This document shows positions 1 to 12,769 of a DNA stretch of 64,000 nt, piece by piece. The DNA is taken from NCBI RefSeq assembly GCF_048403405.1, contig NZ_CP183129.1; one strand, given 5' to 3'. A program made the translations under genes and the position numbers. The stretch's first letter is position 1, and each line of letters starts with the position of its first letter. The notes below the pieces were generated by a model. The model ran no database searches. It was not told the origin of the DNA and worked only from the letters and a program-made list of their open reading frames with translations. Source of the stretch: Escherichia coli. Its GTDB lineage: Bacteria > Pseudomonadota > Gammaproteobacteria > Enterobacterales > Enterobacteriaceae.

Positions 1-3000
1 TTGCCCGTTCAGTGTCACCGTAATAGTGGTGCCCGCTGGCTGATTGCTGGTGCCGGAAATTTGCAGATCCGCGCCTTTTTCGGTGGCGTTAATTATGTCA
101 TCGGTAGCGATGGTGTTAATGCCAATGGTTGGCGCGGTAAGGTTAACGGTGACCGTGTGCGTTTCGCTGTCGCTATTACCTGCCGCATCGGTAACGGTCG
201 CCATCACGGTTTGCGGGCCGCTACCCAGCGCCGTGACATCCGCCGCCGGAACGCCGACGCTCCAGTTGCCGGAGGCATCCAGCGTCGTGGTGTAGGTTTT
301 ACTGTTTAGCGTGACGGTGACGACATCCCCCGCTTCTCCGCCAGTGCTGGAACCGGAAATCACCAGCGCCTGCCCGTGTTCGGCGGCGTTAATAATATCG
401 TCGCCCGCAATGGTGTTGATGGTAAGTACCGGAACGGTGAGATCCACCGCCAGATTATGCGTGGTGCTCGCCGGGTTGCCCGCTTTGTCATTGACCGTGG
501 CGGTCAGGGTGTGGCTGCCATCGGTCAATGCCTCAAGATCTGCCGCCGGAATATTAATACTCCAGCTACCGTCGGCCTGTACCGTTGCCTGATACGTCTG
601 CACGGTCGGGCTATTGAGCGTTATCGTAACAATCTGCCCTGCCTCGGCAGTGGTGCTGCCGCTCACCGTCACACCCGCATCGGCTTCGCTGGCGTTGACG
701 ATATTGTCGCTGGCAACGGTATTGATAATGATGGTCGGGGCACTGCTATCGACGCTGTAGTTATGCACCGCCGAGGCGCTATTGCCATTAATATTGCTGA
801 CGCTGGCCTGCGTGGAGGCGCTGCCATCGGTTAATAACGCTAAATCGGCAGCGGGAACGGTGGCACTCCAGCTACCATCGCTCGCCACGCTGGCAGTGTA
901 ATTTTTCCCGCCAAAGGTGACGGTGACCGTTTGCCCGGCTTCTACATTTGTGGTGGTGCCGGAAAGGGTTAAATCAGCGCCTTTTTCTGCGCCGTTAATC
1001 ACATCGTCCGTGGCGATAGTGTTGATGGTAATAGCCGCCGGAGTGAGATCCACCGTTACCGGATGCGTAATGCTTATCGGATTTCCGGCGCTACTTTCCC
1101 CGGACACGGCAATATTAATCGTCCCCGCAGGCCAGGCGCTAACCTGCGCCGCCGTGACGCCCACGCTCCAGCTACCATCGGCCTGCACCGCAGTGGTGTA
1201 TTCCACATTATTAATTGTGACGGTAAGCGGCGTGCCTTCAGCCAGCCCCGAGCTGCTGCCGCTGACCACCAGCGCCTGCCCGTGCTCGATGATATTGACC
1301 ACATCATCGCCTGCCACCGTATCGATCCGCAGACCGGGCAGATTGGCGTCGATGGTGATATCCCGCGTGCCGCTGCCGGTGTTGCCGTTTTGATTGGTGA
1401 CCGAGGCGCTCACCGTTAAATCGCCATTACCCAGCGCCTGAATATCTGCCGCCGGAACGCTCACGCTCCAGGTGAGATTGCTGCCCACCGTCGCCGTATA
1501 AGTATTACCGCCCAACGTAATAGTTACCGTGTCGCCATCTTCCGCTCCAGTAACCTGCCCGCTGATGGTTTGCGCGACGCCCGCTTCGGCGGCGTTAATA
1601 ATATCGTCGGTTGCCACCGGGTTAATGGTCACGCCGGGCAGCGCGCTGTCAACCAGCACGTTATGGCTGGCGGTGTTGCTGTTGCCGATACTGCTGGTTA
1701 CCGCCGCCGTTACCGTGTAGTTGGCCTGGCCCAGTGCGGTTACCGCCGATGCCGGAACGGTGACGCTCCAGTTGCCGGAGGCGTCGGTCGTGGTGGTGTA
1801 ATTTTGCCCGTTCAGCGTCACGGTGATGGCGGTATTAACAGGCTGATCGCTGGTGCCGGTAATCTGGACATCGGTTCCTTTTTCGCTGGCGTTAATCACA
1901 TCATCGCCCGCAATGCTGTTAATGCCGATAAGGGGCGCTGCGGTATTGACCGTGACGGTCAATGACTGGCTGCCGCTGTTTCCTGCGCGGTCGGTTACCG
2001 AGACGCTGACAGGATAACTGCCGTCCACCAGTCCGCTGACAACGGAAGCCGGAACACCCAGACTCCAGTTGCCGGAACCATCCACCACCGTGGTGTAATC
2101 GGAATTATTTAACGTAACGGTGACAATATCGCCCGCCTGCGCGCCAGTAACCGTGCCACTGATGATTTGCGCCTGGGTGTGTTCCGGCGTGTTGATGACG
2201 TTATCGGTCGCCACCGGATTAATGGTCACCACCGGAGGCGTGGCATCGACCAGCGCCACCCGTGAAACGCTGGTCGGGTTACCGGCGACATCGTTCACGC
2301 TGGCGGTGACCGTGGCGTTGCCGTCAGCCAGTGCGTCAACATTGGCGGCGGGAACGGTCACGCTCCAGGTGCCGTCGGACTGCACGATGCCCTGATAGGT
2401 TTGCCCATTCAACGTAACGGTCACCGTCTGCCCCGGCTGAGCGTCGGTGGTGCCGGTGATGGGCAAATCCTGCCCGCTTTCGGCGGCGTTAATGATGTTA
2501 TCAGCGGTCAGTGGATCGATGCTCAACGCCGGGGCCTGGCTGTCGACGGTAATGGTGCGGGAGGTGTTGCCGGTATTGCCGCTGAGATCCGTCACAGAAG
2601 CGGTAATCGCCACCGCGCCGTCAGGCAGATTTCCCATCGCGGCGGCAGGTACCGTCAGACTCCAGGAGCCATCAGCCTGCACGGTAGTGGTAAAACTCTG
2701 TCCAGCCAGGGTTACTGTGACGGTTTGTCCTGTCTCGGCCTGTTGAGTGCTACCGGTAAGGGTCAGTGGCGCACCTTTTTCTGCGCCACTGATAATGTCA
2801 TCGCCGGAGACGGTGTTAATGGTGATCAACGGAGAAACACCGACCAGCGTGATTGCTCGAGACGCCGCGCCAGTATTTCCTGCAGCATCTGTCACGGTGA
2901 CGAAAATCGTATTGGCTCCGCGATCCAGCGTGCGGGTTACCGCCGGGTCCAGCGCCACATTCCAGCTGCCATCTGCCAGCACGATGCCCGTCAGGACATG

Positions 3001-3740
3001 AGTGCCCAATTTCACCGTTACCGTATCGCCAGGAGAAGCACCGCTGACTTGTCCGGAGATGATCTGCGCGACGGCCTGCTCGGCATTATTAAGAATATCG
3101 TCGCCCGCCACGGTGTTAACGCTGACCACGGGTGCTGAGGTGTCTACCGTGAAATTCGCGCTGTGGCTGGTGGTGTTTCCTGCCCGATCGCTGACACTGG
3201 CATTGACAGCATAATTACCCTCCGCCAGTGCCTGGACTTCCGTGGCAGGCAGCGTCACTTGCCAGGTTCCGTCGCTACCGACGGTTGCTGTATGGCTTTT
3301 CCCGTTGACGGTCAGTGTTACGGTTTGCCCCGCTTCTGCATTCGACGTGCCGCTCAGTACCAGCGCGACGTTATGTTCCGCAGCACTGATGATGTTGTCC
3401 TGAGCGATGGTGTTGATGGCAAGCGTTGGCGGTTGGGTATCGACCGTTAGCAGCTGCGCGCCGGTGACCGTATTGCCTGTGGCGTCTTTCCCACTGACCA
3501 GCACCGCCTGATTCCCTTCGCCTAACGCCTGTGCATCGGCGGTCGGCACCTGCACGCTCCAGGCACCGTTAGCGCCTACGCTGGTGGTGTAGGTTTTGCC
3601 GTTTAGCGTAACGGTGAGTTCTGTTCCCTGCGCCAGATGGCTACTGGTGCCAGAAAGCGTAAACCCGGCGGCCTGTTCGCTGGCGTTAATAATGTTATCG
3701 CCTGCGGTGGTGGCAACCTGCACGCTGGCCTGACTATTGT
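1..3740 (-). repeat. Tandem array of ~300-bp coding repeats (Ig-like domains) inside the adhesin gene; repeats diverged (~40-60% aa identity by eye)
   Basis: Recurring ~100-aa motif in the hand translation; array start approximate. Confidence 0.7.
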
Positions 3741-4548
3741 CGATGGTTAACGTTATCGAACCGGCGTCAGTGATGGTACTGCCGACAATTTGCACCACTG
3801 ACCAGGTATGTTCACCTGCACTTTGCGTGGGTAACGAGACACTCCAGTGACCGTTGTTGTCTACCTGAGTACTGGCAATAGTATTGCCGTTACTGTCTTT
3901 AATCTGAATAGTCGCCCCCGCCTGCCCGCTGCCGCTAAAGGTTGGCGTGGTGTCATCGGTGATGTCATTGGTGGCGAGAATGCCGCGCTGATCGCCCTGA
4001 TTATCGGTAACTAAGAATGATGGTGTGGCGTTGCCAGGCTCAGCGGGTGGCGTAGGGTTATTAATCACTTCCGTTTTCGAGTCGCCATCACCACCGCTTG
4101 CCAGCAGTGCACCAAGCGCACCACCACCTACCGCCGCCCCCGCCAGCCAACCCCACGGGAAGGCGCTGGTCTGAGCAACGGTATCAAGAAATGGCGCAAT
4201 GCTTTCAATCGCGGTGGTCTGGGCAGTCAGTTCTACGGGGGCTAATCCACCCGCAGCAGTATCGGCAAAGGTGACGTGGGTGAGCTGTTGTCCATCGGCA
4301 AACACCAGTTCCGATTGTTCAGCGGTATTCGCCGCTTGCAGGAAATAACCGTTGCAACGGATCACCGTGCCGTCCTGCATATAGATCAGCAGGTCATTTC
4401 CTTCACGGACGTAACGCGAAACGGCAGAGGCCTGAGCATGAACCTGCACCACGGAAGGCTCATAAATAACAACCGTGACGTCGCCAGGATTAATCAGCGT
4501 TTGTTTGACGGATGTTTTACGCGAAATAACATCAATAATCAGGCTCAT
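1..4548 (-). CDS. Giant surface adhesin / type I secretion substrate, N-terminal ~1515 codons (3' end beyond window start); BapA-like N-terminal domain followed by tandem Ig-like domains
   Basis: Minus-strand frame open from ATG at 4546-4548 (AGGAAT RBS 6 nt upstream) to position 1 with no stop. Hand translation: MSLIIDVISRKTSVKQTLINPGDVTVVIYEP..., then 13 or more ~100-aa repeats (TINTIAGDDIINAAE..ISGTS..GQTVTVTLNG.TYTATV.ADGSWSV.VPAAD..AL.DG..TV.ASVTD.AGN). Plus-strand track ORFs here are antisense artefacts. Confidence 0.85.
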   Translation of the reverse strand, partial: MSLIIDVISRKTSVKQTLINPGDVTVVIYEPSVVQVHAQASAVSRYVREGNDLLIYMQDGTVIRCNGYFLQAANTAEQSELVFADGQQLTHVTFADTAAGGLAPVELTAQTTAIESIAPFLDTVAQTSAFPWGWLAGAAVGGGALGALLASGGDGDSKTEVINNPTPPAEPGNATPSFLVTDNQGDQRGILATNDITDDTTPTFSGSGQAGATIQIKDSNGNTIASTQVDNNGHWSVSLPTQSAGEHTWSVVQIVGSTITDAGSITLTIDNSQASVQVATTAGDNIINASEQAAGFTLSGTSSHLAQGTELTVTLNGKTYTTSVGANGAWSVQVPTADAQALGEGNQAVLVSGKDATGNTVTGAQLLTVDTQPPTLAINTIAQDNIISAAEHNVALVLSGTSNAEAGQTVTLTVNGKSHTATVGSDGTWQVTLPATEVQALAEGNYAVNASVSDRAGNTTSHSANFTVDTSAPVVSVNTVAGDDILNNAEQAVAQIISGQVSGASPGDTVTVKLGTHVLTGIVLADGSWNVALDPAVTRTLDRGANTIFVTVTDAAGNTGAASRAITLVGVSPLITINTVSGDDIISGAEKGAPLTLTGSTQQAETGQTVTVTLAGQSFTTTVQADGSWSLTVPAAAMGNLPDGAVAITASVTDLSGNTGNTSRTITVDSQAPALSIDPLTADNIINAAESGQDLPITGTTDAQPGQTVTVTLNGQTYQGIVQSDGTWSVTVPAANVDALADGNATVTASVNDVAGNPTSVSRVALVDATPPVVTINPVATDNVINTPEHTQAQIISGTVTGAQAGDIVTVTLNNSDYTTVVDGSGNWSLGVPASVVSGLVDGSYPVSVSVTDRAGNSGSQSLTVTVNTAAPLIGINSIAGDDVINASEKGTDVQITGTSDQPVNTAITVTLNGQNYTTTTDASGNWSVTVPASAVTALGQANYTVTAAVTSSIGNSNTASHNVLVDSALPGVTINPVATDDIINAAEAGVAQTISGQVTGAEDGDTVTITLGGNTYTATVGSNLTWSVSVPAADIQALGNGDLTVSASVTNQNGNTGSGTRDITIDANLPGLRIDTVAGDDVVNIIEHGQALVVSGSSSGLAEGTPLTVTINNVEYTTAVQADGSWSVGVTAAQVSAWPAGTINIAVSGESSAGNPISITHPVTVDLTPAAITINTIATDDVINGAEKGADLTLSGTTTNVEAGQTVTVTFGGKNYTASVASDGSWSATVPAADLALLTDGSASTQASVSNINGNSASAVHNYSVDSSAPTIIINTVASDNIVNASEADAGVTVSGSTTAEAGQIVTITLNSPTVQTYQATVQADGSWSINIPAADLEALTDGSHTLTATVNDKAGNPASTTHNLAVDLTVPVLTINTIAGDDIINAAEHGQALVISGSSTGGEAGDVVTVTLNSKTYTTTLDASGNWSVGVPAADVTALGSGPQTVMATVTDAAGNSDSETHTVTVNLTAPTIGINTIATDDIINATEKGADLQISGTSNQPAGTTITVTLNGQ

Positions 4549-4656
4549 AATGGCATTCCTGATAAATGGCGCATATCCTTAGCGAGTCCATTTATCTAAA
4601 TAAGACAAAGGTAATCACTTAACAACGAGGCATACCTGATATTAATAATGGCAGGA

Positions 4657-6012
4657 TTATTTCAAGTCGGGTAAGTCGTTGTATAAGCCCTGTTTAATTC
4701 CCGCTAATGGAATAAGGTTATTCACCGCAGCGGCATAATTTACGGCGGCGACCCAGCCATCATAATTGGCATTTATTTCAGCCGATTGCGCCTGAAAGAC
4801 ATCTTGCTCGACGGTTAATAGATCATTCAGACTGCGTTTGCCCAATTTATATTCATTTTGGTACACATCTCGCGTTTTGTGCGCACTTTCGGATTGTGCT
4901 AAACCGGCTTCTTCGCGACCCCGTGCGCCTGTCCAGTTGGCATATGCCACAGACGCTCGTTGCAGCACATCCAGTTTTGCCTGTTCGACCTGCGAGGCAG
5001 AGATTTTTTGTTGCCCTTCGGCCTGTTGCACCTGGGCAGAAACCGCGCCGCCCTGATACAGCGGCGCGTTAACGTTCAGTTGTAGCTGATCATCCCAATA
5101 CGAGCGGTCGCTGGTCTGGTAGCGCGTTTTGCCCCCCTGAATACTCAGCGTTGGCCAGTATTGCGCTTTCGTTTTTTCCACGCCGTACTGTGCTGACTGG
5201 CGTAAGTTTTCTGCCGCCAGCACCAGCGGGATGGACTGGTAATCAATATTTTTCAGCGATACCGGCTGCTCGGCTAATTCAGCAGGTGGCGCGGCTATCG
5301 CCTCCGGCTGTACGCCAGTGAGCACCGCCAGTTGCGCTTTGGCGCTTGCCATCTGCGCCTGATATTGCTCCAGCGTTGAGCGCATTCCGGCAATGCGCGT
5401 CTGGGCCTGTAATTCATCCGACGACGAGTTCAGGCCAGCGTTAGCACGCAATGCTGCCATGTTGTAGACGTTTTCCAGCGAGTGAATATTGCGTTGAGCC
5501 GCATAGCACAAAGCCTGATAACGACTGACTTCCATATAGGCAGTTGCCGTTTTCTCTGCAACATCGGTTAATGTTGCCATCAATTTAAAGCGGTAGCTGT
5601 CACGGGCGGCAGTTTGCAGTTTGATATCGTTGTTAGTTTTACCAAAGTCATACACCAGCTGTGTCAGGGTTATGCCATACGAAACGTTGTTATCAAGCCT
5701 GCCACTGGAGTCCGTTTGTCGGGACGGTCCCGCATTGCCGGTTAATCCAACGTGCGGATACCAGGCACTTTTGGCTTCATCAATTTGCGCTTCGCCAATA
5801 CCTATCTGCGCCGCCTGTTGAGTGACGTCGGGATTTCGCGCAAAGGCGCGTAATATACTTTCCTGTAAAGATAATTGGGCAACTGGCGTTACCGCTGGGG
5901 CATTCGCCCATTGTGGCAGCGGTGCAGCAATTGCAGCTTCTCCCATCACCATAAAACTTATTAAAAAAATAAACCCATTATTTTTACGGCTTTTAAACTG
6001 GAATCGCGCCAT
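4657..6012 (-). CDS. TolC-family outer-membrane efflux/secretion protein, 451 aa, with N-terminal signal peptide; likely the outer-membrane component for the adjacent adhesin
   Basis: Complete ORF; basic n-region then hydrophobic FIFLISFMVMG and AIA-A signal-peptidase-like site; TolC/OprM-like composition; 108 bp upstream of the adhesin start on the same strand. Confidence 0.75.
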   Translation of the reverse strand: MARFQFKSRKNNGFIFLISFMVMGEAAIAAPLPQWANAPAVTPVAQLSLQESILRAFARNPDVTQQAAQIGIGEAQIDEAKSAWYPHVGLTGNAGPSRQTDSSGRLDNNVSYGITLTQLVYDFGKTNNDIKLQTAARDSYRFKLMATLTDVAEKTATAYMEVSRYQALCYAAQRNIHSLENVYNMAALRANAGLNSSSDELQAQTRIAGMRSTLEQYQAQMASAKAQLAVLTGVQPEAIAAPPAELAEQPVSLKNIDYQSIPLVLAAENLRQSAQYGVEKTKAQYWPTLSIQGGKTRYQTSDRSYWDDQLQLNVNAPLYQGGAVSAQVQQAEGQQKISASQVEQAKLDVLQRASVAYANWTGARGREEAGLAQSESAHKTRDVYQNEYKLGKRSLNDLLTVEQDVFQAQSAEINANYDGWVAAVNYAAAVNNLIPLAGIKQGLYNDLPDLK

Positions 6013-6300
6013 AGATAAGTCACTTCCTTCCAGGTCATTATTTTAACTGGTTTTTATAACCAGTCTCATTTTATTAAGAAGGGTAATAACTTGTGCATCT
6101 CTTTTGTCGATCATTGATATTGGCAAAGAAATGCAGCTAAAAAGCTTATACGTTATTTATTTAGAATACACTACGACTTTTAGATTACCATCATACACAT
6201 TAAGAATAATCCACGGTAATAAGTGATTAGCATCACAGATTTATCGCGTATATATCATTTTTTTGTGACTTATTTATTAAAGGAATAAGAAAGGTAATTT

Positions 6301-6338
6301 GAATTAAAGACAAAGGCGCAGTACAGGCTGTACTGCGC
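6301..6338 (-). terminator. Intrinsic terminator downstream of ybaT
   Basis: Inverted repeat GCGCAGTACAG/CTGTACTGCGC at 6316-6338, 12 nt past the ybaT stop, followed on the minus strand by a U-rich tract. Confidence 0.6.
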
Positions 6339-6349
6339 ACAGAGAGGTG

Positions 6350-7642
6350 TTATACGGTTTTATTGCGCTTCATGACCATTGCCACAATAAGGCTGAGTAA
6401 GATTGCACCAATAATCCATATCAACGCACGGCTGCCCTGGGACCACAGGCTGTAGATAAAGCCAACGATCACCAACAACATCACCAACGTACCAACGATA
6501 AGAATCGGCAACGAGGCGTGAATATCATGACGCAGGCGGATCGCCACCACAAACACCGCCAGATAGCAGATCAAAAAGGTGGCGCTGGCAACGCTGGCGA
6601 GTGAGCCTAAATTCAGCGCCGCCGTCATCAGCATAATCAGCACCACGACAATGATGTTGCCCCAGGTACTCTGCCGCCACAGGGATTTATTCATTAGCTT
6701 CGGCAGTTCGCGTTCGCTGCCCATGTTGTCCATGATGTTAAACACGGCGAACAGGTTCGCGTTGATGGCTGAAGCCGTCGCCAGTAAAGCGCCGATGACG
6801 ACGATCACATAACCCACATGCCCGAGCAGCGGAGAAGCTGCCTGCGCTACGGCGGTATCGGCATATTTTTCTAACTCTAATGCCGATACATCGCTAAGCA
6901 AAACCAGCGCCAGCGAGATATAAAGCAACGTGGTAACGCCAATCGCCACCAGAAACGCCCGTGGCATAATGACCTGCGGATCTTTCACTTTATCCGCCGC
7001 GTTCGCCATCATGCCAAAGCCCGCATAGGCAAGGAAGGTTATCCCGATACAGGAGAAGAACGCACCGGAGCTGGGGGGCGCAGAGACGGAAATATGCGCC
7101 GGTTGCAGCGACCAGACACCTGCAATGATCAGCAATAACAGGATCATCATTTTAATGCCGACGAGGATCACTTCCAGCCGCCCTACCGCATGGTTGCTTA
7201 AGGAGTTGAAAAGCGTCATCACCGCAATGATCCCCAACGCGTAGAGCAATATAAGGTGCTCCTCCTGACTGCCTTCATGCAAAAACTGCACGGCATAAGC
7301 GCCAAAAGCACGGGCGACCATGGCGATGCTCACCGCCAGCGTCAACAGGTACAATAACGAGAGTGCCAGCGAAAAGACGCCGTTGCCTAATCCGCGACGA
7401 AAGAAGTCGATAATACCGCCATTGCTGGGATAGCTCGCCCCTAGGCGCGCATAGGCATAACCGGAAAACATCGCCACAATACCGCCAAAAGCAAAGGCGA
7501 CCCAGGTCGAGGCTTCCATTAGCAACGCAGCCTGCCCCAGCAGCGCGAAGATCCCCGCCCCCACCATTGCCCCAATACCGATGGAAACGACGTTCCATAG
7601 ACCGAGGGGTTTGTTATCGTTATTACCTTCCGTGTTCATCAT
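6350..7642 (-). CDS. ybaT: APC-family amino acid transporter YbaT (430 aa)
   Basis: Complete ORF; polytopic membrane protein sequence; 2 nt downstream of glsA. Confidence 0.9.
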   Translation of the reverse strand: MMNTEGNNDNKPLGLWNVVSIGIGAMVGAGIFALLGQAALLMEASTWVAFAFGGIVAMFSGYAYARLGASYPSNGGIIDFFRRGLGNGVFSLALSLLYLLTLAVSIAMVARAFGAYAVQFLHEGSQEEHLILLYALGIIAVMTLFNSLSNHAVGRLEVILVGIKMMILLLLIIAGVWSLQPAHISVSAPPSSGAFFSCIGITFLAYAGFGMMANAADKVKDPQVIMPRAFLVAIGVTTLLYISLALVLLSDVSALELEKYADTAVAQAASPLLGHVGYVIVVIGALLATASAINANLFAVFNIMDNMGSERELPKLMNKSLWRQSTWGNIIVVVLIMLMTAALNLGSLASVASATFLICYLAVFVVAIRLRHDIHASLPILIVGTLVMLLVIVGFIYSLWSQGSRALIWIIGAILLSLIVAMVMKRNKTV

Positions 7643-7644
7643 GA

Positions 7645-8577
7645 TCAGCCCTTAAACACGTTATAGCCGAGTTGCTTAGCGACCGATGCCACCATTTTTT
7701 GACCGCGAACACTGTTACCTTCTTCGTCCAGCGGTGGTGAGAACGCGGCAATTCCCATCACGCCAGGGACGACCGCCAGAATACCGCCACCTACACCGCT
7801 TTTGCCCGGTAAACCAACGCGATACGCCCAGTCACCGGAGCGACCATACAGCCCTTCCATCATCATTTCAGCCAGAATGTACGGCACGTTGTCGGCCTGA
7901 AGAACGCGTTTATGCGTCAGCGGATTCACACCCCCCGCCGCCAGCGTCGCGCCAAGCGTTGCCAGTTCAACAGTATTGATGAGCGTGGAGCACTGACGGG
8001 TGTACACGTCACAGGCTTCCATTGCATCACAATAGAGATATCCGGCGGAGTACAGCAGCCAGGCAATGGCCCGGTTATGGAAGTTGGTTGTTTGTTCCGA
8101 CTGGTTTACTTCGTCAGAGAGCGCTACCTGCTCACCAGCCAGTTGTTGTTGGATATGTAAAATTCGCTGCCAGCGTTGTTCGGCATTTTCAGCGTTAATC
8201 AGGCTGGTGGTGGCAATAGCGCCAGCATTTACCAGTGGCGACAGCGGTTTACCGCCATGCAACTCTAAGGCGATAACTGAGTTAAAGGGCAATCCGGTCG
8301 GGTCAGCGCCAATTTTGTCCTGTACCGCCTGCGGGCCGACATCTTCTAACGCAAGGGCTAACGTACAGACTTTCGAGATGGATTCCAGCGCAAAGCGGTA
8401 ATCACTATCACCCGCGCGATAGATGTTGCCATCGCAGGTCACAATAGCCACTGCTGCCAGTTGACCAGGTACATTCGCCAGAAAGGGAATGTAGTCGGCA
8501 TTTTGTCCGCCGTTAAGTGAGTGAAATTGGGTGTAAGCCTGATCCACTGCCTGCTGTAATTTGTTTGCATCTAACAT
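7645..8577 (-). CDS. glsA: Glutaminase 1 (310 aa)
   Basis: Complete ORF; sequence recognisable as YbaS/GlsA glutaminase; forms glsA-ybaT operon. Confidence 0.92.
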   Translation of the reverse strand: MLDANKLQQAVDQAYTQFHSLNGGQNADYIPFLANVPGQLAAVAIVTCDGNIYRAGDSDYRFALESISKVCTLALALEDVGPQAVQDKIGADPTGLPFNSVIALELHGGKPLSPLVNAGAIATTSLINAENAEQRWQRILHIQQQLAGEQVALSDEVNQSEQTTNFHNRAIAWLLYSAGYLYCDAMEACDVYTRQCSTLINTVELATLGATLAAGGVNPLTHKRVLQADNVPYILAEMMMEGLYGRSGDWAYRVGLPGKSGVGGGILAVVPGVMGIAAFSPPLDEEGNSVRGQKMVASVAKQLGYNVFKG

Positions 8578-8768
8578 CTTTTGTTAACTCCTTTTTATAG
8601 ATGCGGGAGGTAATTCCTCACCCCGGTGCCGATTTTCAGGCATCCTGATTTAACTTAGCACCCGCAACTTAACTACAGGAAAACAAAGAGATAAATGTCT
8701 AATCCTGATGCAAATCGAGCCGATTTTTTAATCTTTACGGACTTTTACCCGCCTGGTTTATTAATTTC

Positions 8769-8799
8769 TTGACCTTCCCCTTGCTGGAAGGTTTAACCT
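8769..8799 (+). promoter_or_regulatory. copA promoter with CueR (MerR-type) operator: -35 TTGACC, 19-bp spacer containing dyad CCTTCC-N7-GGAAGG
   Basis: TTGACCTTCCCCTTGCTGGAAGGTTTAACCT read directly 41-71 nt upstream of the copA ATG. Confidence 0.8.
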
Positions 8800-8839
8800 T
8801 TATCACAGCCAGTCAAAACTGTCTTAAAAGGAGTGTTTT

Positions 8840-9051
8840 ATGTCACAAACTATCGACCTGACCCTGGACGGCCTGTCCTGCGGTCACTGCGTTAAACGCG
8901 TGAAAGAAAGTCTCGAACAGCGCCCGGATGTTGAGCAGGCGGATGTGTCTGTCACTGAAGCGCACGTTACCGGGACTGCCAGTGCAGAACAGCTGATCGA
9001 AACCATCAAACAAGCGGGTTATGACGCATCTGTAAGCCACCCAAAGGCTAA
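8840..9051 (+). CDS. copA: CopA(Z) copper chaperone, 70 aa, produced by programmed -1 ribosomal frameshift within copA
   Basis: Slippery heptamer C-CCA-AAG at 9040-9046 (codons 68-69); the -1 frame reads CCC AAA GGC TAA, ending ...SHPKG. Confidence 0.75.
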
Positions 9052-11344
9052 ACCGCTGGCGGAGTCATCAATCCCGTCGGAAGCACTGACAGCGGTTTCT
9101 GAGGCGCTTCCGGCAGCGACCGCCGATGACGATGACAGCCAGCAGTTGCTGCTGAGCGGCATGAGCTGCGCCAGCTGTGTCACCCGCGTACAAAATGCGC
9201 TGCAAAGCGTACCGGGCGTCACTCAGGCACGGGTAAACCTGGCGGAGCGTACTGCGCTGGTGATGGGCAGTGCCTCCCCACAAGATTTAGTGCAGGCGGT
9301 GGAAAAAGCGGGCTACGGCGCGGAAGCGATTGAAGATGACGCTAAACGCCGCGAGCGCCAGCAAGAAACCGCCGTCGCTACGATGAAGCGCTTCCGCTGG
9401 CAGGCGATTGTCGCACTGGCGGTGGGTATCCCGGTGATGGTCTGGGGGATGATCGGCGATAACATGATGGTCACCGCCGACAACCGCAGCCTGTGGTTGG
9501 TTATCGGCCTGATAACCCTGGCGGTAATGGTTTTCGCCGGCGGGCATTTTTACCGCAGTGCATGGAAAAGCCTGCTGAACGGCGCGGCGACAATGGATAC
9601 GCTGGTGGCGCTGGGTACGGGCGTGGCGTGGCTCTATTCGATGAGCGTCAACCTGTGGCCGCAGTGGTTCCCGATGGAAGCGCGACATCTTTATTACGAA
9701 GCCAGCGCGATGATTATCGGTCTGATCAATCTCGGCCATATGCTGGAAGCGCGCGCGCGTCAGCGTTCTTCTAAGGCGCTGGAGAAATTACTCGATTTAA
9801 CCCCACCGACGGCGCGCCTGGTCACTGACGAAGGTGAAAAAAACGTGCCGCTGGCAGATGTTCAGCCAGGTATGTTACTGCGCCTGACGACCGGCGACCG
9901 TGTGCCGGTAGATGGTGAGATTACTCAAGGCGAAGCGTGGCTGGATGAAGCGATGCTGACGGGCGAACCTATCCCGCAGCAAAAAGGCGAAGGCGATAGC
10001 GTCCATGCCGGGACAGTGGTACAGGACGGCAGTGTGCTGTTTCGTGCCAGTGCGGTCGGCAGCCATACTACGCTGTCACGGATCATTCGCATGGTGCGAC
10101 AGGCCCAGAGCAGCAAGCCAGAAATCGGTCAACTGGCGGATAAAATCTCCGCCGTGTTTGTGCCGGTAGTGGTAGTCATTGCGCTGATCAGTGCGGCAAT
10201 CTGGTATTTCTTTGGTCCGGCACCGCAGATTGTCTATACCCTGGTGATTGCCACCACGGTGCTGATTATCGCCTGTCCGTGTGCGCTAGGACTGGCGACG
10301 CCGATGTCGATTATTTCGGGCGTCGGGCGGGCGGCTGAGTTTGGTGTGCTGGTGCGGGACGCCGACGCGCTGCAACGCGCCAGTACGCTCGACACCGTGG
10401 TGTTCGATAAAACCGGGACGCTGACCGAAGGGAAGCCGCAGGTTGTCGCAGTAAAAACATTTGCTGATGTTGATGAAGCGCAAGCATTGCGTCTGGCGGC
10501 GGCGCTGGAGCAAGGTTCCAGCCACCCGCTGGCACGGGCGATCCTCGATAAAGCAGGTGATATGCAGCTACCGCAGGTCAACGGTTTCCGCACATTGCGC
10601 GGGCTGGGTGTGAGCGGTGAAGCAGAAGGTCATGCGTTGTTGCTGGGTAATCAGGCGTTGTTAAATGAGCAACAGGTTGATACCAAAGCTATCGAAGCGG
10701 AGATTACTGCTCAGGCATCGCAAGGGGCAACGCCTGTGCTGCTGGCGGTTGACGGGAAAGCGGTAGCCCTGCTGGCTGTACGCGATCCGTTGCGTAGTGA
10801 TAGCGTGGCGGCGCTGCAACGCCTGCATAAAGCGGGATATCGTCTGGTGATGCTAACCGGGGATAACCCAACCACCGCCAATGCGATCGCCAAAGAAGCA
10901 GGGATTGATGAGGTGATAGCCGGGGTGCTACCGGACGGTAAAGCCGAAGCGATCAAACGTCTGCAAAGTGAAGGACGTCAGGTGGCAATGGTGGGCGACG
11001 GCATTAACGACGCGCCAGCGCTGGCTCAGGCGGATGTCGGTATTGCGATGGGTGGCGGCAGTGATGTTGCCATTGAAACCGCGGCGATTACCCTGATGCG
11101 CCATAGCCTGATGGGTGTTGCAGATGCGCTCGCGATTTCCCGCGCAACGCTGCGCAATATGAAGCAGAACCTGCTCGGCGCGTTTATCTACAACAGTATC
11201 GGTATTCCGGTCGCCGCCGGTATTTTGTGGCCGTTCACTGGAACACTGCTTAACCCGGTGGTTGCCGGAGCGGCAATGGCGCTCTCGTCGATTACCGTAG
11301 TGAGTAACGCTAACCGGTTGCTGCGGTTTAAACCGAAAGAGTGA
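8840..11344 (+). CDS. copA: Cu(I)-exporting P1B-type ATPase CopA (834 aa)
   Basis: Complete ORF; two N-terminal metal-binding motifs (GLSCGHC, GMSCASC), CPC and DKTGT motifs. Confidence 0.95.
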
Positions 11345-11435
11345 TTGGTATTTACTTAATGCGTTTGTGAGATCCAGTTCTTGTTGCGCTCCTTTTATGA
11401 GTCATGCCATATAAAGTGACTGGCGCAGGGAGCGC

Positions 11436-11467
11436 GCAGGGGGCGGCCAATCGCCGCCGCCCCCTGC
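11436..11467. repeat. Perfect 12-bp GC-rich hairpin (GCAGGGGGCGGC / GCCGCCCCCTGC, 8-nt loop) within a GC-rich non-coding segment
   Basis: Read directly; no U-tract on either side, so not a canonical terminator. Confidence 0.6.
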
Positions 11468-11772
11468 ACCCCCGGGCTCTGGCGAACAAAATCGCCGCTG
11501 CGCGGTACCCTCAGCTTATCCCTTGCGGCTACCGGGTCGGGCGCGAGGTAACATCCCTGTAAAACGCGCCCTCAGCCCACATCCATGTGGGCTGCCCCGG
11601 CCTTCAGGGAACGCCTCGGCGATTTTGACGCCACCAACACCGGTGCAGTCTTTCGTTTCAAAGCAAAAACAATTTTTCGATCATATTTAAGCTACCACTG
11701 AACAAGCCTCATAACTCCATTTGCGCCATCCCTCCCCGCGCGCTAGCATGATATTTCACAAAGGGAGGTCGT

Positions 11773-12567
11773 ATGGATCTGTTGTACCGGGTAAAAACGC
11801 TTTGGGCCGCGCTGCGCGGTAATCATTACACCTGGCCTGCTATCGATATCTCTCTTCCCGGCAATCGCCATTTTCATCTGATTGGCAGTATTCATATGGG
11901 CAGCCACGATATGGCTCCCCTGCCCACCCGTTTGCTCAAAAAGCTCAAAAACGCCGATGCGCTGATCGTCGAGGCGGATGTTTCCACCAGCGATACGCCT
12001 TTTGCTAATTTGCCTGCCTGCGAGGCGCTGGAAGAGCGCATTAGCGAGGAGCAACTCCAAAACCTGCAGCACATTAGCCAGGAGATGGGCATTTCTACCT
12101 CACTCTTTTCTACCCAACCGCTGTGGCAAATCGCGATGGTTCTTCAGGCGACGCAGGCACAAAAACTGGGGCTGCGGGCAGAATACGGTATCGATTACCA
12201 GCTATTGCAGGCGGCGAAGCAACAACATAAACCCGTGATTGAACTGGAAGGGGCTGAAAACCAGATTGCCATGTTGCTCCAGCTCCCTGACAACGGACTG
12301 GCGCTGCTGGACGATACGCTGACCCACTGGCACACCAATGCACGGTTGCTGCAACAAATGATGAGCTGGTGGCTGAATGCGCCGCCGCAAAATAATGAAA
12401 TAACGCTGCCTAATACGTTCAGTCAGTCGCTGTATGATGTGCTGATGCATCAGCGAAATCTCGCCTGGCGGGACAAATTATGCGCCATGCCGCCGGGGCG
12501 CTATGTGGTCGCAGTCGGTGCACTACACCTGTATGGAGAAGGGAATTTGCCGCAGATGTTGCGCTAA
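11773..12567 (+). CDS. ybaP: TraB-family protein YbaP (264 aa)
   Basis: Complete ORF with AGGGAGG RBS; sequence recognisable. Confidence 0.9.
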   Translation: MDLLYRVKTLWAALRGNHYTWPAIDISLPGNRHFHLIGSIHMGSHDMAPLPTRLLKKLKNADALIVEADVSTSDTPFANLPACEALEERISEEQLQNLQHISQEMGISTSLFSTQPLWQIAMVLQATQAQKLGLRAEYGIDYQLLQAAKQQHKPVIELEGAENQIAMLLQLPDNGLALLDDTLTHWHTNARLLQQMMSWWLNAPPQNNEITLPNTFSQSLYDVLMHQRNLAWRDKLCAMPPGRYVVAVGALHLYGEGNLPQMLR

Positions 12568-12649
12568 AAAAATGGCCAATATCGCTATTGGCCCGTCAAA
12601 GAGGAATTTCATATTTTTATTATTATGCCGTCACTTTAAGCGACGGTGT
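12566..12649 (-). ncRNA. chiX: ChiX (SroB/MicM) small regulatory RNA, 84 nt
   Basis: Reverse complement reads ACACCGUCGCUUAAAGUGACGGCAUAAUAAUAAAAAUAUGAAAUUCCUCUUUGACGGGCCAAUAGCGAUAUUGGCCAUUUUUUU with the CCUCUUUGACGGG seed and terminator hairpin; lies between ybaP and ybaK. Confidence 0.85.
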
Positions 12650-12769
12650 AACTCGATTGTCGCTCAATCTCACCATCCTGCCAATACTCTTAGGCAAGAT
12701 GACTCTTTTTTTGGACCGCCATCAGGCGTATGCTTGCTTCGTTTTTTTGTTTAAGGCAGGAAAATTACC

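Follow-up and report, generated by a model that had tools for sequence, protein, structure and literature searches.

The first 6349 positions of the window (the whole stretch of 64,000 nucleotides of Escherichia coli DNA analysed here) very probably represent the ybaT-proximal end of the siiEA locus, or O-island 28 (OI-28), which would encode an RstA-activated type I secretion system (T1SS) adhesin and would be ancestral at its site and deleted in K-12-type genomes. Judged from sequence, the locus is an already known system, of which the right-hand end is seen. Gene content, domain content, conservation and the identity of the locus are established here. The cluster, five genes in ~25.8 kb, is flanked by ybaT and cueR and runs from the TolC-family channel through siiEA and the ABC transporter to the HlyD-family adaptor. 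The sequence-only reading, which preceded this analysis, had described an accessory island for a type I-secreted adhesin, a description that agrees with its absence from K-12 and its presence in ~17% of complete E. coli genomes.

Of the adhesin gene, the window includes only the 5' 22%, and the ABC transporter and adaptor genes lie wholly outside it; the remainder was read from E. coli TUM1226, whose sequence is identical at window positions 1-12712 (1-9000 at 100%) and differs beyond them, the first mismatch being at 12713. According to its genome annotation, the order in TUM1226 is TolC-family gene, siiEA, type I secretion ABC transporter, HlyD-family adaptor and cueR. All five genes of the cluster are intact in this strain, and siiEA (20,778 nt, 6925 codons) has no internal stop. 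The transporter matches the LssB-type model TIGR03375 (837.4 bits, cut-off 693) as well as the Pfam families ABC_membrane and ABC_tran, with a weak N-terminal C39-like match (E 0.029), and the adaptor matches the HlyD model TIGR01843 (327.7 bits, cut-off 209). Family models thereby recognise every part of a T1SS with its own outer-membrane channel: the TolC-family outer-membrane protein (OMP), the ABC transporter, the adaptor and a substrate with a C-terminal signal. The stop codon of the adaptor gene and the cueR start codon overlap (ATGA). The transporter and its membrane-fusion partner (MFP), which had been said to lie outside the window, are both found leftward in the window-identical TUM1226. 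Two outcomes had been named as counting against the sequence-only reading, namely leftward sequence lacking a C-terminal secretion signal and T1SS genes, or the same arrangement in K-12; signal and genes are both present leftward in TUM1226, and the arrangement in K-12 is a different one. A role of the island proteins in anti-phage defence was rejected after a PADLOC scan, which returned only the generic ATPase similarity of the ABC transporter.

The TolC-family gene (4657-6012, minus strand), which had been anticipated past an AT-rich spacer, encodes an outer-membrane channel of 451 aa homologous to tolC28/Z0608. Its product scores 414.9 bits against TIGR01844 (TolC family, cut-off 225) and begins with a signal-peptide-like segment, and the gene shares 97.9% nucleotide identity with the O157 copy. 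The spacer that separates it from siiEA (4549-4656, minus strand) measures 108 bp, with 37% GC, and no terminator-like site was found in it. On the 5' side of the TolC-family gene lies the AT-rich regulatory spacer (6013-6349, minus strand), which had been put at ~300 bp and measures 337 bp, with 32.3% GC versus 52.3% for the whole window and 98.8% identity to the O157 spacer. It includes promoter-like hexamers at 6097-6068 and 6069-6040, which are consensus matches only, and an exact RstA box, TAATTCAAATTACC, at 6293-6306 (minus strand; -294 to -281 from the start of the TolC-family gene). This box is the sole match in the window, versus 0.02 expected by chance, and agrees in sequence and position with that published for O157:H7 (PMC12758282). 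An Rfam scan of window positions 1-12000 returned no structured RNAs at gathering thresholds.

The first conserved backbone gene is ybaT (6350-7642, minus strand; 97.8% identity to K-12). Its intrinsic terminator occupies 6316-6338 (minus strand) as a hairpin, read from 6338 to 6316, with the stem GCGCAGTACAG/CTGTACTGCGC followed by CTTTGTCTTT. The end of the conserved backbone had been placed at this terminator, and homology to island-less E. coli, including K-12, indeed stops at ~6322, inside the hairpin.

The adhesin gene occupies positions 1-4548 on the minus strand, with its ATG at 4548, and leaves the window on the left after 4548 nt (codons 1-1516 of 6925) without a stop, in keeping with the ~4.5 kb of a giant Ig-repeat adhesin gene reported from the sequence alone. 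RefSeq names the gene siiEA in TUM1226, and residues 1-230 match the NCBIfam model NF047714 (adhesin_SiiEA) with 505.8 bits (cut-off 425). The N-terminus carries a BapA prefix-like domain at aa 5-132 (4153-4536, minus strand; Pfam PF22783 BapA_N, E 3.3e-19; 66.2 bits to NF033677 biofilm_BapA_N), which is followed by a Gly/Ala-rich hydrophobic stretch at aa ~130-153. By analogy with LapA- and MpIBP-type adhesins, this domain is presumed to be a retention or anchor module. The sequence TAAG, a di-alanine-type motif, occurs at aa 97-100; four residues may arise by chance, and it may be either a coincidence or a lead.

Tandem Ig-like extender repeats of ~100 aa follow (1-4023, minus strand), ~13-14 of them in the window and ~52 in the whole protein, of which they make up ~75%. 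Their motif anchors are spaced by 99-102 aa, and the windowed part comprises 14 Ca2+-stabilised repeat units, corresponding to 14 stretches matched by NF033510 (Ca_tandemer), and 13 Ig-like units. The extenders match the Pfam families Big_13 and Big_6 and are homologous to region II of MpIBP, the ice-binding adhesin of Marinomonas primoryensis (PDB 4P99, the region II tetra-tandemer, E 1e-66; also 5IRB and 6XI3 'Lap'). Tandem Repeats Finder reported one short array only, because the repeats have diverged in DNA and their periodicity is visible in the protein.

The C-terminal region of SiiEA, read from TUM1226, contains Big_13, three FG-GAP_3 repeats and an RTX nonapeptide match (Pfam), and ends in a type I secretion target domain (TIGR03661, 36.1 bits, cut-off 17.6), the kind of C-terminal signal whose absence would have counted against the sequence-only reading. 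The RTX content is small, amounting to one PF00353 match (E 2.1e-4) and two matches to the pattern G[GSN]xGxD. When the C-terminal 700 aa were modelled with AlphaFold (pLDDT 65.9), a propeller of moderate confidence resembled CRTAC1 (E 8e-14), a Psathyrella lectin and integrin alpha, and the tail resembled the serralysin RTX roll; a sequence search of solved structures with the C-terminal 799 aa returned CyaA RTX blocks only.

From these components, a working model of the system can be proposed. Transcription of the cluster would start in the AT-rich spacer 3' of the ybaT terminator and would be activated by RstA acting on the box at 6293-6306. A type I secretion conduit, assembled from the ABC transporter, the adaptor and the dedicated TolC-family channel, would recognise the C-terminal secretion domain and export the 6925-residue adhesin C-terminus first. 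Extracellular Ca2+ would then fold the RTX repeats and stiffen the ~52 extender domains into a long rod. By analogy with related adhesins, we infer that the BapA-prefix module retains the protein at the surface, where it probably remains lodged inside or beneath the outer-membrane channel, so that the rod is tethered to the cell. The FG-GAP beta-propeller (aa ~6226-6570), which immediately precedes the RTX repeats, is the likeliest candidate for a ligand-binding head.

The same gene and comparable systems have been described under several names. 'BapA-related adhesin SiiEA' (NF047714) is the NCBI annotation name of the same gene, which corresponds to siiEA of E. coli UMN026 (ECUMN_0527). The name siiEA is used in PMC3256949, where 'Adhesin for cattle intestine colonization' stands as its product label in a table, a label that appears to derive from Salmonella SiiE. 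The name that SiiEA shares with SiiE denotes analogy, not orthology. SiiE of Salmonella SPI-4 (siiABCDEF) is likewise a giant adhesin with tandem Ca2+-binding Ig domains and type I export (compare PMC6272769 and PMC5466336), whereas the five genes of the siiEA island do not include the proton-channel accessory genes for SiiA/SiiB (MotAB-like), and SiiEA differs in its BapA-type N-terminus and in the FG-GAP propeller of its C-terminal region. With Salmonella BapA/BapBCD it shares the BapA-type N-terminal prefix, the Ig-like repeats, the C-terminal type I signal and a dedicated OMP, ABC transporter and MFP. However, BapA-type loci, such as that of S. enterica subsp. arizonae L080, are ordered adhesin, OMP, ABC, MFP, while the siiEA locus has the OMP first, and the identities between these two loci (56% for the MFP, 48% for the ABC transporter and 29% for the OMP) are not at orthologous level. 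The layout of MpIBP and of Pseudomonas LapA-type adhesins, with N-terminal anchor, rod, ligand-binding modules, RTX repeats and secretion signal, is also shared, although the ligand-binding module of SiiEA is a candidate FG-GAP propeller instead of their set of ice-, sugar- and peptide-binding domains. Control by the LapG protease and the c-di-GMP receptor LapD was considered and rejected, as a search of the island, and of the sequence following its closest counterparts in Enterobacter sp. Ag1 and Cedecea neteri, found neither gene. E. coli SiiEA is not among the proteins treated in a 2026 preprint on RTX adhesins.

In O157:H7, OI-28 is the same locus, with the same ybaT-cueR site, the same gene order and an identical RstA box at -294. 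The window locus is 93.5-98.8% identical by segment, at the nucleotide level, to that of O157 strain 493/89 and syntenic with ECs_0540-0544 of strain Sakai and with Xuzhou21, which bears out the similarly placed O-island 28 named in the sequence-only reading. In O157:H7, the genes Z0608, Z0609, Z0615, Z0634 and Z0635 correspond to tolC28, rtxA28, rtxB28, hlyB28 and hlyD28, respectively (Niu et al. 2025, PMC12758282). Deletion of OI-28, or of any of its genes, lowers adherence to Caco-2 cells and colonisation of mice by O157:H7 (PMC12758282). RstA binds the spacer, and the island is an adherence and colonisation system under RstA and Ca2+ control, with a role shown for O157:H7 and O145:H28 only (PMC12758282). 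Because the locus has a documented role in colonisation by enterohaemorrhagic E. coli, its correct recognition matters for annotation. Codon 1462 of siiEA is GAA (Glu) in the window (163-165, minus strand) and a stop codon in O157:H7 Sakai and Xuzhou21, where it splits the adhesin gene into ECs_0541/Z0609 and ECs_0542/Z0615. The resulting ORFs, an N-terminal one of 1461 aa and another of 5291 aa, have been described as two RTX proteins, whereas the window and TUM1226 have one intact ORF of 6925 codons. The functional data come from O157:H7, with its split adhesin gene, and bear only indirectly on intact SiiEA.

The history of the site can be read from the island-less genomes. Among 5426 complete E. 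coli genomes, ~17% carry the island (left end in 958, right end in 944) and 82% (4458) have the K-12 junction. In K-12 MG1655, ybaT is followed by a 124-bp spacer and cueR, as the sequence-only reading had stated, but its conclusion that the locus is therefore an insertion is unsupported as it stood. Far from being empty, the K-12 spacer still contains ~100 bp from the 3' end of the island hlyD-family gene, translating as ..VVAVDIRTGKK, a 1-nt frameshift and VLEYLLKPFNKAQEALRER*, which corresponds to the C-terminal 32 residues of the adaptor. The motif is also conserved at the C-terminus of homologues in other genera without a neighbouring cueR. The comparison of the ybaT-distal junction with K-12 that had been suggested gives the breakpoint at 6322 and, on its other side, not an empty insertion site. 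K-12, LD93-1 and ATCC 25922 have one common junction with the frameshifted hlyD C-terminus, whereas a divergent Escherichia genome labelled E. coli has a different deletion, internal to the island. The hlyD-cueR adjacency is also found in E. whittamii and Escherichia sp. E1V33, and in other species of Escherichia this site is occupied by the island or by its decayed remains. As the K-12 spacer encodes the frameshifted end of the adaptor, K-12 is taken to be a deletion derivative. Literature searches (cueR + ybaT + RTX) found no earlier description of this relic.

The opposite explanation, a recent horizontal insertion of foreign DNA into an empty, K-12-like ybaT-cueR backbone in this lineage, could account for the absence of the island from 82% of the genomes and is in keeping with the AT-richness of its spacer and the 60% GC of its adhesin gene; acquisition is also assumed in the published study of OI-28 (PMC12758282). 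In addition, homologous clusters, with adaptors 67-73% identical, occupy other sites, without cueR, in Enterobacter, Cedecea, Lelliottia, Pluralibacter and Rahnella, which means that the cluster has moved between genomes at some time. We nevertheless consider such a recent insertion very unlikely, given the adaptor relic at the supposedly empty site, the overlap between cueR and the adaptor gene, and the presence of the island at this site in E. whittamii and another Escherichia species. The hallmarks of a mobile genomic island (attachment site, mobility genes, flanking repeats and a clean empty site) are not seen either: no tRNA gene was found in the island, its annotation includes no integrase or mobility genes, and a scan of each border region separately found no repeats except the terminator hairpin. 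These absences, together with the island or its remnants in other Escherichia, point to a deletion of ~25.8 kb as the origin of the K-12 state. The GC and codon comparison proposed in the sequence-only reading revealed a composition step that is real but modest (GC of 60.5% in siiEA, 57.1% in the ABC gene, 56.9% in hlyD, 51.2% in tolC and 53.6% in ybaT). Much of the excess GC of the adhesin gene comes from the second codon position (0.54 versus ~0.40), because the protein is rich in Thr, Ala, Val, Gly and Ser, and GC3 in the island genes (0.716 in siiEA) is like that of ybaT (0.673) and cueR (0.676), so that composition gives no support to a recent foreign origin. Strains with and without the island share 94-96% identity in cueR, which is no more divergent than copA (95-97%) and is therefore uninformative on this history. 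Altogether, the sequences indicate that the locus was at its site before E. coli diversified and that K-12-type genomes lost it, keeping the adaptor relic before cueR; the acquisition that remains implied would have taken place in an ancestor within Escherichia and not in this strain.

Losses of this kind raise the question of whether the locus is decaying in the present strain too, non-functional and on its way to the K-12 state. Apart from the full deletion in 82% of genomes and the internal one in the divergent Escherichia genome, O157:H7 has its nonsense codon at 1462, and the sorbitol-fermenting O157 strain 493/89 has a different one at 6009 together with a tolC frameshift. Here, however, the 1516 windowed codons of siiEA are open, with GAA at 1462, the five genes are intact in TUM1226, identical to the window, and the RstA box and spacer are conserved, which makes ongoing decay very improbable. 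It is scarcely credible that SiiEA is an RTX cytotoxin instead of an adhesin, as older annotations of Z0609 and Z0615 ('RTX toxin/exoprotein') would have it. The protein does match the RTX nonapeptide model and has a type I secretion signal, and the 2025 paper uses 'RTX toxin' and adhesin interchangeably (PMC12758282), but the nonapeptide blocks number only one or two, most of the protein consists of extenders homologous to the rod of the Marinomonas adhesin, the N-terminus is a BapA-type prefix domain, the island annotation includes no hlyC-type acyltransferase gene, and the published phenotype is a loss of adherence, not of cytotoxicity (PMC12758282).

With the locus read as an ancestral adhesin system lost from K-12-type genomes, the present analysis goes modestly beyond the literature in three points, namely the K-12 scar, the cueR overlap and the split-gene nature of the O157:H7 version, and leaves the classification unchanged. 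As a deletion scar, the K-12 ybaT-cueR junction would reverse, for this island, the usual reading of an O-island as acquired. The siiEA gene seen here is the intact form and a better subject than the split O157:H7 version for work on anchoring and on the ligand of the FG-GAP propeller. A further, tentative possibility, which we regard as rather unlikely, is that the ancestral Escherichia operon ends in cueR, co-transcribed and translationally coupled with the RstA- and Ca2+-controlled adhesin secretion genes in ~17% of strains, and that the O157:H7 phenotype is that of a released adhesin. If so, the 'two RTX proteins' of O157:H7 would be the halves of one adhesin, parted from its own anchor module, the phenotype would reflect released instead of tethered adhesin, and strains with intact siiEA would behave differently. 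In K-12-type strains, in turn, cueR expression would originate from the deletion scar, and the same deletion would have cost them the ybaT terminator. Because cueR and the final gene of the cluster overlap, expression of the copper regulator may not be the same in strains with and without the island.

The conserved backbone in this part of the window, made up of copA (8840-11344), glsA (7645-8577) and ybaT (6350-7642, minus strand), gives way at a terminator-like hairpin at the ybaT end (6338-6316) to an AT-rich, minus-strand spacer of 337 bp, with 32.3% GC versus 52.3% for the whole window. Beyond it lie two minus-strand ORFs separated by 108 bp: one of 451 codons (4657-6012), whose product is a TolC-family channel (TIGR01844, 414.9 bits versus a cut-off of 225), and the 5' part of a large adhesin gene, which starts with an ATG at 4548 and runs for 1516 codons without a stop past the window edge. 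Coordinates and description agree with the sequence-only reading, all elements lying where it had placed them. The adhesin opens with a BapA prefix-like domain (Pfam PF22783, E 3e-19) and its first 230 residues match the curated NCBI SiiEA model (505.8 versus a cut-off of 425), while the rest of the windowed part consists of 13-14 Ig-like repeats of ~100 aa each, of the class 'Ca2+-stabilised repeat', with clear homology to the rod of the Marinomonas ice-binding adhesin (PDB 4P99, E 1e-66). Just past the core of the prefix domain, residues 97-100 (4249-4260) form a TAAG motif, a position comparable to that of the LapG di-alanine cleavage site of LapA-type adhesins.

The remainder of the island was taken from E. 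coli TUM1226, which is 100% identical to the window over 1-9000. The first difference appears at 12713, so the window strain is not TUM1226, and its leftward sequence is probably, not certainly, the same. In TUM1226 the adhesin gene is a single intact ORF of 6925 codons, encoding a protein with zero cysteine in which ~52 repeats of ~100 aa are followed by Big_13 domains, three FG-GAP_3 repeats, an RTX nonapeptide block and a type I secretion C-terminal target domain (TIGR03661, 36.1 versus a cut-off of 17.6). An AlphaFold model of the last 700 residues, built with 21 homologues and of moderate confidence (pLDDT 65.9), predicts an FG-GAP beta-propeller closest to CRTAC1, a Psathyrella lectin and integrin alpha subunits, and after it a serralysin-like RTX roll. 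On the 3' side follow the genes for an LssB-type type I secretion ABC transporter (TIGR03375, 837 bits versus 693) and an HlyD-family adaptor (TIGR01843, 328 bits versus 209). The type I secretion reading, which had depended on a secretion signal and on ABC and membrane-fusion genes outside the window, is thus upheld, since TUM1226 has the TIGR03661 domain together with the ABC and HlyD-family genes. Directly after the adaptor comes cueR, whose ATG overlaps the adaptor TGA (ATGA; 433-436 of the TUM1226 locus, left of the window). Given this overlap, cueR appears to be the final gene in the secretion cluster; no consensus promoter for cueR was found in either the island-bearing or the K-12 arrangement.

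This locus is already known. RefSeq names the large gene 'siiEA: BapA-related adhesin SiiEA', a name in use in PMC3256949, and the whole shares synteny with the O157:H7 strains Sakai (ECs_0540-0544) and Xuzhou21, and 93.5-98.8% identity by segment with O157 strain 493/89. By synteny and sequence identity it is O-island 28, which the sequence-only reading had named as a similarly placed island. Niu et al. 2025 (PMC12758282) reported that loss of the island, or of any one of its five genes, reduces Caco-2 adherence and mouse colonisation, that RstA binds the box TAATTCAAATTACC at -294 to -280 from tolC28, and that island expression rises with Ca2+. A mismatch-free copy of this box, for which 0.02 matches are expected by chance, lies on the minus strand at 6293-6306, 294 nt upstream of the TolC-family ATG.

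The form of siiEA varies among strains. In Xuzhou21 and Sakai (4674-24833 and 6355-26823 of the O157:H7 loci L087 and L089), a nonsense codon at 1462 splits the gene into ORFs of 1461 aa (ECs_0541/Z0609), comprising the anchor module and ~12 repeats without a secretion signal, and 5291 aa (ECs_0542/Z0615), which correspond to the 'two RTX proteins' described in PMC12758282. Codon 1462 in the window (163-165) is GAA, and the window version is therefore intact, with the N-terminal anchor module joined to the secreted rod in a single polypeptide. In the sorbitol-fermenting O157 strain 493/89 (4565-26799 of its locus), a nonsense codon at 6009 interrupts siiEA ahead of the part for the propeller, the RTX repeats and the secretion signal, and tolC is frameshifted; these mutations inactivated the locus independently within the O157 group.

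Among 5426 complete E. coli genomes, the right end of the island (window 1-9000) was found in 944 and the left end (cueR-hlyD-ABC) in 958, the K-12-type ybaT-cueR junction in 4458, and other arrangements in about ten. One rare rearrangement at this junction is that of the dog isolate CUVET21-PYO5, in which ybaT is truncated by a prophage with tail-fibre genes and a recombinase (1-4973 of its locus). In a scan of one genome per species, hlyD-cueR adjacency was confined to Escherichia (E. coli, E. whittamii and Escherichia sp. E1V33).

The direct succession of ybaT and cueR in K-12 had suggested an insertion. In island-less genomes, homology to the island ends at window 6322 on one side and reaches 96 nt upstream of the cueR ATG on the other, and one identical junction is shared by K-12, LD93-1 and the B2 strain ATCC 25922. 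The 124-bp K-12 spacer (4870-4997 of the K-12 locus) encodes VVAVDIRTGKK and, after a 1-nt deletion, VLEYLLKPFNKAQEALRER and a stop in another frame, the intact adaptor ending in MVATVDIRTGKKSVLDYLLKPFNKAQEALRER. The same C-terminal motif ends the adaptor homologues of Enterobacter, Cedecea, Pluralibacter, Rahnella, Alkanindiges, Acinetobacter, Variovorax and S. enterica subsp. arizonae, none of which adjoins cueR, and the K-12 spacer is therefore adaptor-gene sequence, a relic that PGAP likewise flags as a frameshifted partial pseudogene. In agreement with a deletion, the island contains no tRNA gene or mobility genes, its borders have no repeats except the terminator hairpin, its GC3 resembles that of neighbouring genes, and hlyD-cueR adjacency is, in the one-genome-per-species scan, confined to Escherichia. 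Thus, of the sequence-only reading, the observation and the identity stand and the polarity is reversed, the 'empty' K-12 site holding the adaptor relic: the best reading is that the island already occupied the ybaT-cueR site when E. coli began to diversify, and that the K-12 arrangement arose by a deletion of ~25.8 kb. With it the ybaT terminator would have lost its 3' arm, and the K-12 junction has no terminator-like site left. Homologous clusters in other genera occupy unrelated sites, with adaptors 67-73% identical, and therefore an older acquisition by an Escherichia ancestor remains likely. A divergent Escherichia genome that bears the label E. coli SCPM-O-B-8794 (2051-7523 of its locus; ybaT 88% identical) likewise agrees with deletion: an independent internal deletion there has left most of hlyD but only fragments of tolC, of the 5' end of siiEA and of the ABC gene.

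Other variable sites lie nearby, and variable adhesin loci flank cueR on either side. Island-bearing O157 genomes have a second small accessory block between cueR and ybbJ, outside the window (1-819 of the 493/89 locus; 30769-33021 of L089), with genes for a hypothetical protein, a lipoprotein and a YadA-family autotransporter adhesin; at least the hypothetical gene is seen at the edge of the TUM1226 stretch (1-25), and in K-12 ybbJ is directly next to cueR. The copA-ybaP spacer (11345-11772), which measures 429 bp both in the window and in TUM1226, has no ybaQ, the HigA-family antitoxin gene that K-12-like and O157 genomes carry at this point, one strain together with a pseudogene for a RelE/ParE toxin; ybaQ is replaced by a GC-rich stretch that resembles a repeat element and contains numerous short inverted segments.

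By analogy with MpIBP, LapA, SiiE and BapA, the adhesin would be exported C-terminus first and would fold and stiffen with Ca2+, its N-terminal module being tethered in the TolC-family channel and its distal FG-GAP propeller acting as a putative ligand binder. Neither the locus nor its nearest homologues are accompanied by LapG or LapD genes, the island lacks the SiiAB accessory genes known from SPI-4, and its gene order is unlike that of BapABCD; the E. coli system works like LapA-, SPI-4- and BapABCD-type systems, yet is a member of none. Locus identity, components, domains and conservation are established here, the role in adherence and colonisation and the control by RstA/Ca2+ having been established in O157:H7 by others (PMC12758282). 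The system is an E. coli family of its own, already named; minor additions worth recording are the relic in K-12, the overlap of cueR with the adaptor gene, and the intact versus split adhesin.
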